Below the pieces are notes generated by a model. The model was given only the letters and a program-made list of their open reading frames with translations. It made no database searches and was not told the DNA's origin. Positions 18,569 to 51,365 of a DNA stretch of 64,000 nt are shown in pieces. The translations under genes and the position numbers were made by a program. Positions within the stretch are counted from its first letter, which is position 1, and each line of letters starts with the position of its first letter. Origin of the DNA: Candidatus Omnitrophota bacterium (GTDB lineage Bacteria > Omnitrophota > Gorgyraeia > Gygaellales > Profunditerraquicolaceae); NCBI GenBank assembly GCA_026387335.1, contig JAPLLX010000003.1:138230-202229 (forward strand), in the 5' to 3' direction.

Positions 18569-19081
18569 TTATTGTTTATTCCCCGGTAATAATTTTAAGA
18601 TTTTAGCAACTACTTCCTTTACCGAAAACTTGGATGTATCTATTGTTTTATCGGCTAAAGCGTAATAAGGCGAGCGCAGCTTAAGCAGCAACCCTATTCT
18701 TTCTTTAGGGTTCTTAACATTAAGCAGCGGCCTGTGCGTTGAGCCGGAGACCCTTTTCAATATTACCGCGGGCTCTGCGCTCAAGCAGATGACTATACCG
18801 CTCTTTTTCATAATCTTAATATTTCTTTCATCAATGACTATTCCTCCGCCACAGCCGACCACAAAGTTCTTTTCTTTGGCTACTTCTTTTAACACCTTAC
18901 TTTCTACGCGCCTGAAATACGGTTCGCCAGCCTGAGCGAAGATATCCGGAATACTCCTTCTCTCTTTTAACTCAATTAGTTCATCCAGGTCAACAAACCG
19001 CCATTTCTTATTTTTGGCCAGTTCGCTTCCTACGGCGCTTTTGCCTGTGCCCATAAATCCGACTAAATAAATATTCTTCAT
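18569..19081 (-). CDS. aroK: shikimate kinase
   Basis: MKNIYLVGFMGTGKSAVG is a P-loop, and the length is 170 aa. Confidence 0.8.
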   Translation of the reverse strand: MKNIYLVGFMGTGKSAVGSELAKNKKWRFVDLDELIELKERRSIPDIFAQAGEPYFRRVESKVLKEVAKEKNFVVGCGGGIVIDERNIKIMKKSGIVICLSAEPAVILKRVSGSTHRPLLNVKNPKERIGLLLKLRSPYYALADKTIDTSKFSVKEVVAKILKLLPGNKQ

Positions 19082-19088
19082 TTTAATT

Positions 19089-19165
19089 TAGGGACGGTTC
19101 TCAAGACAATCTTAAACTGTCCCCTAATCAGGGACACTTTTCCTTTGAGTTGAGAACCGTCCCTA
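19089..19165. other. nested perfect inverted-repeat hairpin element between aroK and spoVG
   Basis: tagggacggttctcaa (19089-19104) is the exact reverse complement of ttgagaaccgtcccta (19150-19165). An inner 6-bp hairpin tgtccc/gggaca lies at 19118-19136. Confidence 0.6.
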
Positions 19166-46212: not shown

Positions 46213-46888
46213 AGAATTTCTTGATTGCCGCGACTACTTCCTTGGGTTTGTCAACTACCGTAAAAATATCCAAATCCGATTTACTGATATTCCCATTAGC
46301 CAGTACAGCTTCTTTCAACCAATCCAACAGCCCGTTCCAATAAACGCTTCCGAACAATATAACGGGAAATTTATTTATCCTCTCGGTCTGAATAAGGTTG
46401 ATCGCCTCAAAAAATTCATCCAGCGTGCCGTAACCTCCCGGCAAAATCACAAACGCCTTGGCGTATTTAACGAACATAACCTTCCTGACAAAAAAATAAC
46501 GAAAATCCAATAGAGTATCCACGTACTCATTTGGTTTTTGTTCGCAAGGAATATGGATGTTTAAACCGACGGAATGTCCCCCTGCCCGGCGCGTTCCCTT
46601 ATTTGCCGCTTCCATCATCCCGGGCCCGCTTCCGGTAATTACGGCGTAGCCTGCCTTGGCCACATGATAAGCGACTTCTTCACCCAATTTATAATATTCT
46701 GTGCCGCGCGTTGTCCGGGCTGAACCGAATATCGAAACAGCCTTACCGATTTTAGAAAGGACCTCAAAGCCTTCCACAAACTCAGACATAATCCGGAATA
46801 CGCGCCAGGGGTCTTCCCGCGTAAAATCGTTAACTAAATCTACCCTACGGATACAAGATTTTTTTACCATTTTAACGGCTCCTTCCAT
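46199..46888 (-). CDS. LOG-family (TIGR00730) nucleotide 5'-monophosphate phosphoribohydrolase
   Basis: VSIFGSARTT...ITGSGPGMMEAANKG...VILPGGYGTLDEFFE contains the PGGxGTxxE LOG motif. Confidence 0.75.
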   Translation of the reverse strand: MEGAVKMVKKSCIRRVDLVNDFTREDPWRVFRIMSEFVEGFEVLSKIGKAVSIFGSARTTRGTEYYKLGEEVAYHVAKAGYAVITGSGPGMMEAANKGTRRAGGHSVGLNIHIPCEQKPNEYVDTLLDFRYFFVRKVMFVKYAKAFVILPGGYGTLDEFFEAINLIQTERINKFPVILFGSVYWNGLLDWLKEAVLANGNISKSDLDIFTVVDKPKEVVAAIKKFYAQG

Positions 46889-49752
46889 ACTTTTTTTAAT
46901 TTATCAATTCCGGCGTTAACGCAGATTTTATTATCTAAGCCATAGACCTTAAATTCTTTCTTTTTGCTTACGCAGCCGATTAATCCGAAGGATTTGCCTT
47001 TTAAGCTTTGCTCAAAAGCTTTCTGATTTTTCTTTTCAACTTCCACGATAAACCGAGAGTTGGATTCGGAGAATAAAACGAAATCATTGCGTTTTTCTCC
47101 CACGTAAGGAACGCTGGATAAAAATATATCCATACCTAACCCGCCGGAAAAAGCCATTTCAGCTAAAGCTACTGCCAGCCCTCCTTCAGAGCAATCATGC
47201 ATTGAACGGATCAACCTTCTACTTGAAGCCCGGCTTAAAGAATCAAAAAGCGCTTTGGCTTTCTTTACCTTAACCTTAGGCACACTATTGCCGATAGCTC
47301 CGGATAAATCGTAATAATGCGAACCGCCCAATTCTTGATATGTTTGACCAACCACATAAACCAGGTTACCCGCGTCTTTAGCGTACATTGATATTGCTTT
47401 GCTCGCGTCTTCCATCACTGAAATTGCCGAAATTAAAAGCGTTCCGGGGATAGCCAGGGATTTACCGTGTTCGCTGTATTCGTTATACAGGCTGTCCTTT
47501 CCGGAAATAAACGGCGCGCCAAAACCAACTGCCGCGTCATAACAACCGTAAGCGCAGCGCACTAAACTTCCCAGCCTATCCGGCTTATCCGGATTGCCCC
47601 AGCAAAAATTATCTAAAATCGCGACTTCCTTTAATGAGCCGCCGCAGCTGATAATCTGGCGCAAGGCCTCGTCAATACAAGAAGCAGCCATCCAGTAAGG
47701 ATCAATAAATCCGTATCTAAAATTTATTCCGTTGGAGACAATTACGGCCTTAGAAGAGCTTAAAACCGGCCTGACGATACTGGCATCCGATGGCCCATCG
47801 TTATCTATACCAGTCAAAGGCTTCATCACTGAACCGCCTTGCACCTCGTGATCATACCTGCGGATTACCGATTCTTTAGAACAGATATCGTAATGCGCCA
47901 GCAGCTTTTCTAAAACCGGGGTCAAATCTTTGGCGGGATTTATTTTCGGCTCCCGGTGCTTAGCCGGAGCGTACACCGCCTCTTTGACAATTTTAGGCTG
48001 GCCCTTGTGAAGAAACTCCATGCCCAGCGAGCAAACCAGGTTATCCTTATAATAAAGTTCAAGTTTTTTTGTAGCGGTAAACTCGCCGATTACCGTAGCT
48101 TCCACATTCTCGTTTGTAAAAACTCCCAGTAAATCCTCAATTTTTTCTGGCGGGACGGATAAAACCATCCTCTCCTGCGATTCGGATATCCAGATCTCCA
48201 TATAAGATAACCCGTCATACTTCAAGGGCACTTTATCCAACTCCACCCGGGCGCCTAATTCCGCGGCCATCTCTCCAACCGCGCTGGATAATCCGCCTGC
48301 GCCGCAATCAGTAATCGCGCTGTATAAATTTTTGTCGCGGGCCTGTAAAATCGTATCCAGCATCTTTTTTTCCTGAATGGGATTACCGATCTGGACCGCG
48401 CCGCTGGAAATAGTTTCAGACTCATGCGTCAGCTCGCCGGATGAAAAAGTCGCGCCGTGAATACCGTCTCGACCGGTCCTGCCGCCGACAACTACCACTA
48501 AATCCCCGCTATTTGTTTTCTTAAAAGATTTCTCCCGCGGCATAATCCCGGCTGTGCCGCAATAGACCAGCGGATTGCCGGTAAATTTTTCATGGAAGAG
48601 TATGGCCCCGTTTACAGTAGGAATCCCCATTTTGTTCCCGTAATCGCGCACGCCGCTGACTACACCCTTCATCACCCGCTTAGGATGGAGCGCGCCAACA
48701 GGCAACTTACTAAACGGATAATCCGGCAGGCCAAAACAAAAAATATCGGTATTTAAAAATGGCTTAGCGCCTAATCCTGTCCCCAGCGGATCGCGGATTA
48801 CGCCTCCTATACCGGTATTCGCTCCGCCGAAAGGCTCTAATGCCGAAGGATGGTTGTGCGTTTCAACCTTAAAACAAATATTGTATAAATCGTCAAAACG
48901 GATTATGCCGGCGTTATCCTTAAATACCGAAACGCACCAGGGCTTGTTTAATTCTTGGGTTACTTTCATTATTGTCGCCTTAAGCAGGCCGTCAATTAAT
49001 TTTGTCTTTGTCGCCTTAATTTTCTCGGTATATTTAATCTTACCCCGGAATGTTTTATGCGAGCAATGTTCGGACCAGGTCTGGGCAATGGTCTCAAGCT
49101 CACAATCAGTAGGATTACGCTTTAAACTCTTAAAATAATTTTTTATTGAGCGCATCTCAGACAGGTTCAGGAATAACTGGCCCCTCTTGCTTATCTCCAG
49201 CAATCTCTCGTCTGAAGCGCCTAATAAGTCTACGTTAACCAGGTTAAACTGGTACCTTGAACTCAATCGGGGGCTGTCCCCGGAAGGGACTGTCCCCGAT
49301 TTTACAATGTGCTGGATTAATTTATTATAAAGGAGTTTTTCGCAGATAGTTTTTAGCTGGGTAGCGGAGAGTTTTCCCTGGATTATATATTTTTTCGCCG
49401 TCTTAACAGATTCAGCTCCGGATATGCCCAAATCGCGCACACCTTTTAAGGTGGATTCCTCAACCGGGTCCATAACTCCCGGATTATAAGCGACCTCAAC
49501 GATAAATTTATCTTTCTGATTTCTTTCCGCGGCAGGATTAACAGAATAACACTGATAAACTTTATCGGTAAGTAGTTCAGCGCAAATTTTTGTTATCTCT
49601 TCAACGCTAAGTTCGCCTTCAATAGTATAAACCTGGATAAACCTGACCTCTTTGACTGTCTTTATCCCGAAATCAAGGATATCGCTCTTGACGCCGGCTA
49701 CCGCAGCGTCAAAAATACCGCTTCTTTCTCTTACTTCAATTTTGTAAAGCAT
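46864..49752 (-). CDS. purL: phosphoribosylformylglycinamidine synthase II with N-terminal PurS domain(s) (PurS-PurL fusion)
   Basis: The N-terminal ~160 aa are PurS-like (MLYKIEVRERSGIFDAAVAGV...). The PurL AIRS domains follow (GIGGVIRDPLG). Confidence 0.9.
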   Translation of the reverse strand: MLYKIEVRERSGIFDAAVAGVKSDILDFGIKTVKEVRFIQVYTIEGELSVEEITKICAELLTDKVYQCYSVNPAAERNQKDKFIVEVAYNPGVMDPVEESTLKGVRDLGISGAESVKTAKKYIIQGKLSATQLKTICEKLLYNKLIQHIVKSGTVPSGDSPRLSSRYQFNLVNVDLLGASDERLLEISKRGQLFLNLSEMRSIKNYFKSLKRNPTDCELETIAQTWSEHCSHKTFRGKIKYTEKIKATKTKLIDGLLKATIMKVTQELNKPWCVSVFKDNAGIIRFDDLYNICFKVETHNHPSALEPFGGANTGIGGVIRDPLGTGLGAKPFLNTDIFCFGLPDYPFSKLPVGALHPKRVMKGVVSGVRDYGNKMGIPTVNGAILFHEKFTGNPLVYCGTAGIMPREKSFKKTNSGDLVVVVGGRTGRDGIHGATFSSGELTHESETISSGAVQIGNPIQEKKMLDTILQARDKNLYSAITDCGAGGLSSAVGEMAAELGARVELDKVPLKYDGLSYMEIWISESQERMVLSVPPEKIEDLLGVFTNENVEATVIGEFTATKKLELYYKDNLVCSLGMEFLHKGQPKIVKEAVYAPAKHREPKINPAKDLTPVLEKLLAHYDICSKESVIRRYDHEVQGGSVMKPLTGIDNDGPSDASIVRPVLSSSKAVIVSNGINFRYGFIDPYWMAASCIDEALRQIISCGGSLKEVAILDNFCWGNPDKPDRLGSLVRCAYGCYDAAVGFGAPFISGKDSLYNEYSEHGKSLAIPGTLLISAISVMEDASKAISMYAKDAGNLVYVVGQTYQELGGSHYYDLSGAIGNSVPKVKVKKAKALFDSLSRASSRRLIRSMHDCSEGGLAVALAEMAFSGGLGMDIFLSSVPYVGEKRNDFVLFSESNSRFIVEVEKKNQKAFEQSLKGKSFGLIGCVSKKKEFKVYGLDNKICVNAGIDKLKKVWKEPLKW

Positions 49753-49772
49753 GGTTATAAATTACGGGGTTA

Positions 49773-50057
49773 CTGAGTCTCCGGCAAATAATGGGCATAT
49801 TGGAAGCCCGGATTTAGGACGTATGCAAGGCGCGACGACGAAGGCGTAGTCGTAGCACTACGCCGAGGAGAAGCAACGCCGCAGACGGCCGAAAGGCGGG
49901 CTTCCCTCTTACTCCTATATATATGGGCTGGCTGATTTTGGGCTGCGACTGCGTCACTCGTCCTTGGCGTAGCGCTTTGGCTACGCCGGTGTCCTCGTTC
50001 CTTGTCTCGCTCCAAAATCAGATCAGCCAATGTGTCCATTATTTGCCGGAGACTCAG
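49773..50057. mobile_element. MITE-like element: ~35-bp terminal inverted repeats flanked by a TA dinucleotide duplication
   Basis: The left end ctgagtctccggcaaataatgg (49773...) is the reverse complement of the right end ccattatttgccggagactcag (...50057). TA lies at 49771-49772 and 50058-50059. Internal 8-bp hairpins include ggcgtagt/actacgcc and ggcgtagc/gctacgcc. The element is GC-rich and has no coding capacity. Confidence 0.6.
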
Positions 50058-50072
50058 TAGGTGGGTAAATAT

Positions 50073-51365
50073 TTATAAACCGACTCTCTTGAATATTTTA
50101 TTTACGTTGCGCAGATAATAATTTAAATCAAATATATTATCCAGTTCCTTTTCGCTTAAAATCTCCGCCACTTTCGTATCCAGCAAAAGGCTGTCTCTAA
50201 AATCTACTCCCTCTTTCCAGGTATACATGGCACAGCGTTGCACTAAATCATAAGCCTTGGGTCTGGCTAAACCCTTATCCATCAGCGCCAAAAGCACGCG
50301 CTGGGAAAAAATCAGTCCGCGGGTCTTGATAATATTGGCCATCATATGTTCAGGATAGACATTCAGGCCTTCCATAACCTGAATAAATTTATTCAGCATA
50401 TAATCCAGGGCTAAAGTGGAATCCGGCATAATTATTCGCTCAACCGAGGAATGCGAAATATCCCGTTCATGCCAGAGCGCTATATTCTCCATTGCGGCGA
50501 CAGAATTGCCGCGTAAGAGGCGGGCTAATCCGCATATACGCTCGCAGATCACCGGATTGCGCTTGTGCGGCATGGCGCTGGAACCCTTTTGGCCCTTGCC
50601 AAACGGCTCTTCTGCCTCTAAAACTTCAGTGCGCTGCAGATGGCGTATTTCGGTAGCAAATTTTTCTAAACTTGAGCCGATAATCGCTAATCTGGCCATA
50701 AACACAGCATAAATATCCCGCTGGATTATCTGAGTAGAGATTTTGGCCGGTTTTAATCCCAGCTTTTTACAGACATAAGTTTCAACCTGCGGGTCAATAT
50801 TAGAATAGGTGCCGACTGCTCCGGAAAGCTTACCTACCGAGACTTCTTCTTTGGCTAACCTTAAACGCTCCAGGTTACGTTGCATTTCATCATACCAGAG
50901 GGCTAATTTTAAACCAAAAGTTGTAGGCTCCGCGTGTACACCATGGGTACGGCCTATACAAGCTGTATCCTTATAATTTAAAGCTTTTTTAGCCAGGACT
51001 TTTAGCAGCCTGTTGACATCATCAACGAGGATATCTGCCGCTGCTTGCAGCTGGACCCCGAGGGTAGTATCTAAAACATCCGATGAGGTAAGGCCCAAGT
51101 GCAGGTATTGGGCGTCTTTCCCAATATATTGTGATACATTGGAGACAAACGCCACTACATCATGTTGTGTCTTCTCTTCGATCTTCTTGATTTGGGCTAA
51201 ATTAAATCTGGCTTTTTGTTTGATTCTTCTGACTGCGGCTGGCGGGACTTTTTTCTGCTTGGCTAAGGCTTCCAGGCTGAGGATCTCAATGGCAAGCATG
51301 GTTTTAAACTTAAACTCTTCCTGCCAGATATTATTCATTTTGGGAAGGCTGTAACGTTCAATCAT
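50073..51365 (-). CDS. purB: adenylosuccinate lyase
   Basis: MIERYSLPKMNNIW...SSAMPHKRNP is the fumarase/ASL family signature. Confidence 0.9.
   Translation of the reverse strand: MIERYSLPKMNNIWQEEFKFKTMLAIEILSLEALAKQKKVPPAAVRRIKQKARFNLAQIKKIEEKTQHDVVAFVSNVSQYIGKDAQYLHLGLTSSDVLDTTLGVQLQAAADILVDDVNRLLKVLAKKALNYKDTACIGRTHGVHAEPTTFGLKLALWYDEMQRNLERLRLAKEEVSVGKLSGAVGTYSNIDPQVETYVCKKLGLKPAKISTQIIQRDIYAVFMARLAIIGSSLEKFATEIRHLQRTEVLEAEEPFGKGQKGSSAMPHKRNPVICERICGLARLLRGNSVAAMENIALWHERDISHSSVERIIMPDSTLALDYMLNKFIQVMEGLNVYPEHMMANIIKTRGLIFSQRVLLALMDKGLARPKAYDLVQRCAMYTWKEGVDFRDSLLLDTKVAEILSEKELDNIFDLNYYLRNVNKIFKRVGL

Follow-up and report, generated by a model that had tools for sequence, protein, structure and literature searches.

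A MITE-like inverted-repeat element at operon junctions of Candidatus Omnitrophota and its possible tolerance through relayed translation

An inverted-repeat element present or absent at the same sites

A 64-kb stretch of DNA from Candidatus Omnitrophota, hereafter the window, holds a 289-nt palindromic element between purB and a purS-purL fusion gene, and the locus raised the question of what such an element is and how it is tolerated within an operon. Positions below follow the window numbering, and the sense strand is the minus strand, which is that of purB and purL. [quoted passage not shown] The element is inserted in some genomes and strains and missing from the same site in close relatives. 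A sequence-only reading of the window had already proposed a MITE-like insertion and had named further copies and an empty site in relatives as the test; both were found, and the element proved to be non-coding, bounded by terminal inverted repeats (TIRs), present at 12 other Omnitrophota sites and absent from the corresponding site of a relative (L007). The minus-strand placement of the genes, the locked orientation within operons, the stop-free through-frame and an outward-facing GGAG, all described below, went beyond that reading.

With its flanking TA dinucleotides, the element occupied 49771..50059 on the minus strand (289 nt) and scored 339 bits on that strand against the nhmmer family profile, compared with 133 bits on the plus strand. 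The interval from CTGAG to CTCAG, 49773-50057 (285 bp), agreed exactly with the element as originally delimited, and the two TA dinucleotides lay at 49771-49772 and 50058-50059. The 23-mer ACTGAGTCTCCGGCAAATAATGG occurred exactly twice in the window, at 49772-49794 (plus) and 50036-50058 (minus), where shuffled sequences are expected to hold none. The terminal repeat was perfect over 23-24 nt and imperfect out to ~31 nt, so that an inverted repeat was indeed present and the length of ~35 bp first given for it was slightly generous. The whole element formed an imperfect palindrome with 124-nt arms, 72% complementary, and the internal hairpins and nested repeats previously described were recovered, as two perfect 8-bp hairpins (49843-49864 and 49966-49987) and nested inverted repeats at 49802-49826/49881-49905 and 49929-49941/50012-50029. 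Its GC content was ~0.53 compared with 0.39-0.45 in the flanks, its fold stability was ~-145 kcal/mol, and the z-score of its folding energy was ~-10 to -11 on either strand relative to shuffled controls. No second large inverted repeat of this kind was present in the 64-kb window.

Copies elsewhere were sought by scanning 185,579 species genomes, and JGI metagenomes, for exact matches to a 20-mer of the TIR, which yielded copies in two other metagenome-assembled genomes (MAGs) and on three metagenome contigs, several of them cut by contig ends. Further copies came from a profile of translated open reading frames (ORFs) of the element that was searched against a protein database, after which the DNA of some matches and of neighbours was retrieved. 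This search returned 138 called “proteins” derived from element copies, mostly of 88-90 aa, none named and none with a Pfam domain, which formed 18 clusters at 50% identity in the full HMMER search. In total, 13 independent insertion sites were recognized in Omnitrophota MAGs and metagenomes; DNA was available for 12 of them (11 of the main subfamily and the divergent copy L028), and one (P0207) was known from gene tables only. The family showed several traits of MITEs: a length (289 bp) below ~500 bp, no transposase gene and a frame-mosaic 89-codon frame as the only ORF, TIRs in all full copies, and dispersed copies with filled and empty sites in relatives.

In JGI, ENA and NCBI metagenome annotations, element copies have been deposited as “hypothetical proteins” of ~88-90 aa (hits P0121-P0240 and P0361-P0367), and a few longer entries of 115-202 aa look like the element frame fused to a neighbouring gene. 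One candidate copy, L004 (Ga0272443_10147336, 644-663), was set aside as a chance match, as it shared an exact 20-nt TIR match and no further similarity; it lies inside what we take, from its sequence alone, to be a pseudopilin-type gene.

The purB-purL spacer measured 320 nt in the window and 35 nt in L007, whose PurB was 98% identical. The empty site of L007 read ...ACCCACC-CAACA-CCCCGTAATTTATAACCATG, compared with ...ACCCACC-TA[CTGAG...CTCAG]TA-A-CCCCGTAATTTATAACCATG in the window, and the same site was also empty in relatives with 91% and 90% PurB identity. These empty sites contradicted the idea of a structured leader kept in all relatives. They also bore on the earlier suggestion that the insertion had deprived purL of a Shine-Dalgarno (SD) sequence: the empty purB-purL site was equally without one, and the lack of an SD at purL is therefore native.

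Polymorphism within a species was found at the murF|mraY junction, which was filled in L025 (a 289-nt copy at 1707-1995) and empty in L026 and L027 (~1990-2000), where murF directly abuts mraY; the MraY protein was identical and the DNA 99.2% identical between the filled and empty alleles. In the filled allele the C-terminus of MurF changed from ...EVFKI* to ...EVFTETPANNGHIG*, a net gain of nine codons. Another species (L012) carried an independent copy at murF|mraY in a different position, where MurF ended in ...EVFKITETPGK* with six additional codons. For the window's own genome, the contigs with the identical MraY were either filled at this junction or broken at the element.

Breaks of this kind recurred in short-read assemblies. 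L022 and L023 begin 47 nt into the element, L024 opens exactly with TAGATG, L001, L002 and L006 hold the element at contig ends, and other contigs of the L012 genome were broken within the element or exactly at its edge. The element thus fragments Omnitrophota MAGs and is probably under-represented in assemblies. Copy density was low. The 64-kb window held a single copy, and an nhmmer search with the family profile through ~270 kb of Omnitrophota DNA gave no further or diverged copies. Plasmid and phage collections gave no match by blastn, and neither did viral contigs in a single scan with the most conserved core 23-mer.

Orientation, reading frame and conserved fold

All 13 sites were co-oriented with the downstream gene, an outcome with a chance of 2^-13 if orientation were random, and the upstream gene was co-directional at each of the 10 sites where it was known. 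The orientation of the copies was unambiguous, because the family profile scored ~340 bits in the sense and ~125 bits in the antisense direction. Besides purB|purSL, the element stood at cbiQ-like|ABC ATPase, rnfA/E-like|rnfB-like, murF|mraY (in two species and not at the same position), lptC-like|next gene, [NiFe] hydrogenase small|large subunit, atpG|atpD and GGDEF|ROK junctions, and ahead of ftsW, a DHH phosphoesterase gene, a gene for a 54-aa Cys-rich product and acpS.

In the gene-sense direction, a frame of ~89 codons ran from an ATG in the 5' repeat (AAATAATGG) to a terminal CAG-TAA or CAG-TAG, and is called the relay frame here. In the window this stop-free frame covered 49770..50039 on the minus strand (89 codons and TAA, with no Pfam match), beginning 33 nt past the purB stop and finishing 17 nt before the purL ATG. 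The 5' terminal repeat in the sense direction (50029..50059, minus; TA-CTGAGTCTCCGGCAAATAATGGACACATTGG) includes AAATAATGG with the relay ATG at 50037-50039 and provides the 5' strand of the terminal stem. The 3' terminal repeat (49771..49801, minus; ...CCATTATTTGCCGGAGACTCAG-TA) provides its 3' strand and carries both the outward-facing GGAG (49779-49782, minus) and, at its end, the CAG+TAA that closes the relay frame (stop at 49770-49772, minus).

The relay frame was open in all five full copies that were found without reference to an ORF, by DNA pattern or by a neighbouring protein (window, L002, L003, L005 and L025), and also in the partial copy L006. Indels within it summed to 0 mod 3 in every case (-1/+1, -1/+1, +3/-3 and +18), and the equivalent frame of the opposite strand was closed in every copy. 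In L025 both tip hairpins were damaged, yet the length (289 nt) and the frame were intact. A rough neutral simulation gave each copy a chance of 0.4-0.5 of escaping stops by substitution alone; combined with a chance of 1/3 per indel-bearing lineage, the result was of the order of 10^-3, a figure that assumes independence and is weakened by shared ancestry. Among the called ORFs, 91 of 120 ended at the terminal CAG. Four frame paths (40, 30, 13 and 5 copies) returned to the same final frame, while non-returning paths fell into at least six classes of 1-5 copies each, a comparison little biased by ORF calling because the last segment is open in all three frames. The pattern suggests that frame-intact variants are those that spread or persist. 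The frame-shifting indels sat in hairpin loops and in the junction, and segments were read in different frames among copies. An 89-aa protein was rejected as an explanation, as the called ORFs were frame mosaics, with SQSATPRTSDAVAAQNQPAH in some against SLALRQGRVTQSQPKISQP in others and, likewise, EGEARLLAVCGVASPRRS against EGKPAFRPSAALLLLGVVLK.

The ends of the element lay close to the stop and start codons of its neighbours. It ended 0-5 nt before the downstream ATG in 9 of the 12 copies with DNA (9 of 11 in the main subfamily), and the 3' junction read CTCAG-TA-ATG or a one-base variant of it (TGATG, CAATG) in 6 of those 11. The ATG followed CTCAG-TA at once (TAATG) in L001, L015, L016 and L019, the variants being TGATG in L002 and CAATG in L005; it lay 1-5 nt past the element in L012, L003 and L025, 10 nt past it in L006 and 18 nt past it in the window. 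On the 5' side, the upstream gene of L005 ended ...TTC TAC TGA, its stop rebuilt from TA and the CTGA of the repeat. The upstream stop was the TAA of AAATAATGG in L012 and L016, a TAA 3 nt ahead of the ATG in L003 and L015, and the gene's own TAA directly before TA in L019, and it lay 17 nt beyond the relay ATG in L025. Upstream stops ranged from -17 to +33 nt from the relay ATG in the eight main-subfamily copies with a known 5' flank, with ~40 nt in L028. Relative to the downstream ATG, the relay stop of 10 main-subfamily copies out of the 11 with DNA ranged from an overlap of 14 nt to a gap of 17 nt, the exceptions being L019 (26 nt) and the divergent L028 (87 nt). The 5' repeat held a stop in each frame within ~11 codons; in the window variant (CGG CAA), one frame of the 5' repeat continued unstopped into the relay frame.

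At L016 (10258-10290), the start of the [NiFe] hydrogenase large subunit has been called 30 nt within the element. The ATG that directly follows CTCGG-TA is more likely to be the start, giving MSKNIKVNVEYLTRVEGHG with the usual RVEGHG N-terminal motif.

A Y-shaped fold of the element is kept by compensatory changes. Eight copies were aligned over 311 columns with a mean identity of 86%, and the length from TA to TA was 289 nt in six of the eight full copies (290 and 307 nt in the other two). RNAalifold gave a structure of 97 pairs, made of a terminal stem formed by both repeats, a D2 hairpin, an AT-rich junction and a D1 hairpin, on which 98.2% of cells were paired. Compensatory double changes occurred at 15 pairs, compared with 6.6 +/- 1.5 in shuffles (none of 500 reached the observed count), and controls with one partner slid gave 0-2 such pairs. 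The terminal stem covaried as well (CTGAG/CTCAG against CCGAG/CTCGG, and TCTCCGGC against TCATCCAT on both arms). The D1 and D2 tip hairpins varied independently, with covariation only within each domain; this ruled out the single long hairpin, the minimum-free-energy structure of the window copy, as the conserved fold and identified the Y shape instead. Folding energy and the counts of G-U against A-C cells gave no consistent strand preference (15 of the 25 sense G-U cells came from two invariant columns), so that a role in RNA was indistinguishable from one in single-stranded DNA.

In the window, all on the minus strand, domain D2 comes first in the sense direction (49929..50029), with a base of TGGCTGAT(C)TGATTTTGG / CCAAAATCAGCCA, compensatory changes in its helices 2-5, and a tip hairpin at 49966-49987 (GGCGTAGC-loop-GCTACGCC). 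The AT-rich junction (49906..49928) is variable in sequence, and its length steps preserve the frame (variants of +18 nt, or +6 codons). Domain D1 follows (49802..49905), with a base of GGAAGCCCG / CGGGCTTCC, helices 6-7 and a tip hairpin at 49843-49864 (GGCGTAGT-loop-ACTACGCC).

Proposed relayed translation, possible mode of movement and rival explanations

We propose that the element is tolerated at operon junctions through translation relayed across the insert, a mechanism that we infer, together with translation of the frame, from sequence features. Ribosomes ending the upstream gene would terminate within the 5' repeat or shortly ahead of it, the repeat providing three-frame stops and an ATG in a TAATG context, and would reinitiate on the ~89-codon stop-free frame found on the gene-sense strand only. 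Translating ribosomes would melt the very stable fold that may otherwise bury the next ribosome-binding site, and would terminate at the last bases of the element (CAG-TAA or CAG-TAG), beside or overlapping the downstream ATG. Translating the insert would, in addition, spare the operon Rho-type polarity. The element would thereby donate SD, stop and start signals and not a promoter; a promoter role had been suggested for it at first, and a consensus scan revealed no sigma-70-like promoter and no terminator-like pattern within it.

The 3' repeat in the subfamily of the window (GCCGGAGACTCAG-TA) places GGAG 8-10 nt before an abutting ATG, the standard SD spacing. At atpG|atpD, the native SD (AAAGG) and the atpG stop stay upstream of the element and the GGAG of the repeat replaces the SD, the empty homologous junction reading GGATAA-AATT-ATG. 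In the predicted transcript fold, GGAG pairs with CTCC of the 5' repeat in a terminal helix of ~30 bp, and because of this pairing free ribosomes should not reach it.

Several observations weigh against relayed translation. The relay ATG of the main subfamily sits within the terminal stem and is not preceded by its own SD, so that initiation there would have to depend on the upstream ribosome. For termination-reinitiation, the gaps of 33 nt upstream and 17 nt downstream in the window are long; about a quarter of the called ORFs end in ...ATG.CAG and not ...GAG.CAG, and so lack GGAG; and in the divergent L028 copy 87 nt separate the element from the next gene. Called ORFs led to eight of the 13 sites, and the openness of the frame is therefore ascertained there, while the unbiased copies number only 5-6 and share a common ancestry. 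Two of the three sense frames are stop-poor, which makes openness partly compositional. Pairing is equally good on both strands, so the fold may act in DNA and not in RNA, and the orientation bias could come from strand-specific transposition instead.

A further-reaching version, which we regard as doubtful, would make the element a mobile “translational coupler” that homes to operon stop-start junctions and represents a new class of operon-resident mobile element of an uncultivated phylum. Its Y-shaped core, conserved even between subfamilies with unrelated terminal repeats, would then have a function as an RNA or DNA module, either by tying the downstream cistron strictly to translation of the upstream one or as the target recognised by a translation- or strand-coupled insertion machinery.

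The termini of the family read TA-CTGAG... or TA-TTGATGTTCGC..., and TA flanked 6 of 8 5' ends and 9 of 11 3' ends. The sequence-only reading had taken these flanks for a TA target-site duplication. Such a duplication is plausible. TA flanks most copies, but no filled/empty pair reduces cleanly to a single TA, and TA is self-complementary and prolongs the inverted repeat. The window compared with L007 gave an empty site (ACCCACC-CAACA-CCCCG) with no TA. Subtracting the element and one TA from L025 left GAG GTT TTT ATA TAG ATG, an intact murF end (EVFI*) abutting the mraY ATG, one codon apart from the EVFKI* of the observed empty allele. Neither pair thus gives a single TA unless an extra small difference in the flank is assumed, and the pairs are compatible with TA duplication in a variant allele without proving it.

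TA also flanked the divergent subfamily, L028 (3967-4257; NCBI GCA_040960315.1, JBFOMO010004657.1), whose hairpin core was homologous at 155 bits and whose 31-nt TIR (TTGATGTTCGCATAAGTTATAGGAGTTTTGG) was unrelated to that of the main subfamily. L028 also carries an SD-like AGGAG in its 5' repeat, upstream of the internal frame, and the next gene, 87 nt past the element, has its own SD. As TA was retained across different terminal repeats, a TA-targeting mechanism is favoured, and movement would most likely depend on a TA-targeting DDE transposase supplied in trans. No DDE transposase or other transposase Pfam family was found within 10 kb of any copy, and exact 20-mer scans, which would miss a diverged partner, gave no autonomous insertion sequence (IS) with matching TIRs. 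An ancestry among IS630/Tc1/mariner elements is put forward as a hypothesis.

It is possible, though unlikely, that the element plays no part in translation and is a selfish MITE or palindromic repeat of the ordinary kind. Its single orientation would then reflect strand-specific insertion (for example by an HUH/Y1 route of IS200/IS605 or RAYT type, on single-stranded DNA hairpins at the replication fork) combined with gene-strand bias, and its open frame would be a by-product of composition and gene calling. The absence of a DDE transposase within 10 kb and the stop-poor character of two sense frames fit such a repeat, as do hairpins that covary and pair equally well on both strands. The core is conserved across subfamilies with unrelated TIRs, the opposite of the usual outcome with a TIR-recognising transposase, and within the element a hairpin unit is doubled in inverted orientation, D2 resembling the reverse complement of D1 as in REPINs; because of these two features the HUH/Y1 route keeps some weight. 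IS200/IS605-type elements and their derivatives (PATEs) have subterminal hairpins, and the present family has hairpins that covary, but the former lack a TIR and a duplication, use a fixed adjacent target of 4-5 nt and go with a Y1 transposase, whereas a long TIR is present here and no fixed flanking tetranucleotide or other such target was seen across copies. A purely selfish repeat would also need an extreme gene-strand bias to produce 13 co-oriented sites out of 13. It leaves unexplained the exact endings at start codons and the lack of copies in non-operonic spacers, the frame-restoring indels, which include copies found independently of ORFs, and L025, where hairpin pairing was lost but length and frame were kept.

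That a host-beneficial intercistronic RNA structure spread and was kept seems improbable to us. Here the ~30-bp terminal helix would be an RNase III site or an mRNA-stability element that uncouples or stabilises cistrons, or would impose strict coupling by burying the downstream SD. The very stable conserved fold (~-145 kcal/mol, z ~-10), the GGAG inside the terminal helix and the copies between genes for subunits of complexes (atpG/atpD, hydrogenase small/large, rnf, cbiQ/cbiO) would suit such an RNA, and Correia/NEMIS, ERIC and REP/BIME elements are precedents (PMC3049150, PMC10969869). Close relatives differ in whether they carry the element at essential operons, which speaks against a function that is needed; an RNase III site in the symmetric terminal helix would work either way round, while only one orientation was found; and the maintained reading frame is left unexplained. 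A leader, riboswitch or promoter donor specific to purL is very improbable: the element does stand directly upstream of purL, which lacks an SD, but the same element also stands ahead of 12 or more unrelated genes, is missing from the purB-purL junction of the relatives with 98%, 91% and 90% identical PurB, contains no promoter or terminator pattern, and is not needed to explain an SD-less start that the empty site shares. Rfam 15 gave no match at the gathering score anywhere in the window, and a permissive scan of the element region returned only sub-threshold noise from eukaryotic miRNA, snoRNA and lncRNA families. Scarcely credible is the view that the inverted repeats enclose a genuine gene encoding an arginine-rich protein of 89 aa. 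ORFs of 88-90 aa have been called in ~100 metagenomic copies, but these “proteins” mix alternative frames read from one and the same DNA, have no Pfam domain, and show substitutions that track base-pairing and not codons.

The upstream neighbour in the window, purB (adenylosuccinate lyase; 50073..51365, minus), has its stop 13 nt (50060-50072) before the element, and the downstream purS-purL fusion (962 aa; 46864..49752, minus) begins with an ATG 18 nt past the terminal TA. The N-terminal ~150 aa of the fusion comprise two Pfam PurS stretches, followed by the FGAR-AT linker and AIRS domains, and this PurS-PurL architecture of 961-976 aa is common to relatives too. Elsewhere in the window, a 77-bp hairpin of unrelated sequence (19089-19165) has perfect 16-nt terminal arms (TAGGGACGGTTCTCAA / TTGAGAACCGTCCCTA) and lies within a 412-nt gap, 7 nt upstream of the start codon of a minus-strand ORF (18569-19081). 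This hairpin may represent a further small palindromic repeat, or else an operator.

Relation to known mobile repeats and coupling systems

The closest likeness in organisation, with no sequence relatedness to be expected, was to the MIRUs (mycobacterial interspersed repetitive units) of Mycobacterium (Supply et al. 1997), which, according to later accounts that cite them, insert at start codons with a coupled internal ORF (PMC12548453, PMC3184786). As described there, MIRUs lie in intergenic spacers within operons, in the orientation of the flanking genes; they hold a small ORF whose ends overlap or abut the stop and start codons of the neighbours, and they are regarded as mobile repeats that insert at start codons and are tolerated via translational coupling, all of which resembles the present element. 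In the same accounts MIRUs are units of 40-100 bp, often in tandem as variable-number tandem repeats, with at most imperfect terminal repeats, and their junctions overlap by -4 nt, whereas the element described here overlaps by -1 nt (TAATG) and is a single 289-bp unit of another phylum, with a TIR of 24-31 bp, TA flanks and a covarying Y fold, and with no tandem copies. The element would thus work like a MIRU without being a member of the MIRU family.

Other palindromic repeats share parts of this organisation. Like the Correia or NEMIS elements of Neisseria, the element is short, has TIRs and TA at both ends, lies immediately upstream of genes with which it would be co-transcribed, and forms long hairpins (PMC10969869, PMC3049150). 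Correia elements measure 100-160 bp, are found in either orientation and act via outward promoters, IHF sites and RNase III cleavage, whereas here no promoter pattern was found, the orientation was fixed and a through-frame was maintained. Rickettsia palindromic elements (RPEs) are likewise palindromic, mobile and translatable, and their insertion keeps reading frames (PMC10969869); they insert inside genes and join the protein, while the present element lies between genes as a separate small frame and adds at most a few codons to the upstream C-terminus (+6 for murF in L012, net +9 in L025). Chunjie, a MITE from Geobacter uraniireducens (Chen et al. 2008), is described in citing accounts as AT-rich, with 9-bp direct repeats and a location mostly in ordinary intergenic regions, and those accounts mention no orientation lock or relay frame (PMC10969869, PMC3184786). 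REPINs and REP-BIME repeats, which RAYT (Y1) transposases mobilise, are also inverted hairpin doublets that form one long or two local hairpins and are extragenic, often inside operons (PMC3184786). They differ in measuring ~70-120 bp, without a TA-flanked TIR, a tie to start codons or a maintained frame; no RAYT gene was seen around the copies, for which no genome-wide search was made.

The proposed unfolding of the element by ribosomes has parallels in RNA-unfolding coupling, as in MS2 coat-lysis, f1 genes VII-IX and rpmI-rplT, where a buried downstream ribosome-binding site is opened only by ribosomes of the upstream frame (PMC12548453). In those systems the structure is part of the resident genes, whereas here it would come with the mobile insert.

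Our literature search found no paper on MITEs of Omnitrophica. MITEs and coupled repeats of the MIRU type are already known; what appears undescribed is their combination in a 289-bp element that is bounded by TIRs, folds into a covarying Y and shows strict placement at operon junctions, a fixed orientation, an indel-compensated open frame, and stop, start and SD signals encoded in the TIR. For annotation, recognition of the family is of practical use, as copies are miscalled as 88-90-aa hypothetical proteins, Omnitrophota MAG assemblies are broken, and predicted gene ends and starts are shifted, such as the C-terminus of murF and the start of the hydrogenase large subunit. If the relay is true, the filled and empty natural alleles of the same junction would also offer a natural test bed for termination-reinitiation as opposed to RNA-unfolding coupling. 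It would then be a second case after MIRUs, independent and structurally different, of a repeat persisting in essential operons (here those for ATP synthase, the dcw cell-wall cluster, hydrogenase, rnf and purine synthesis) by staying translatable, with the stop, start and SD signals supplied by its own terminal repeats.

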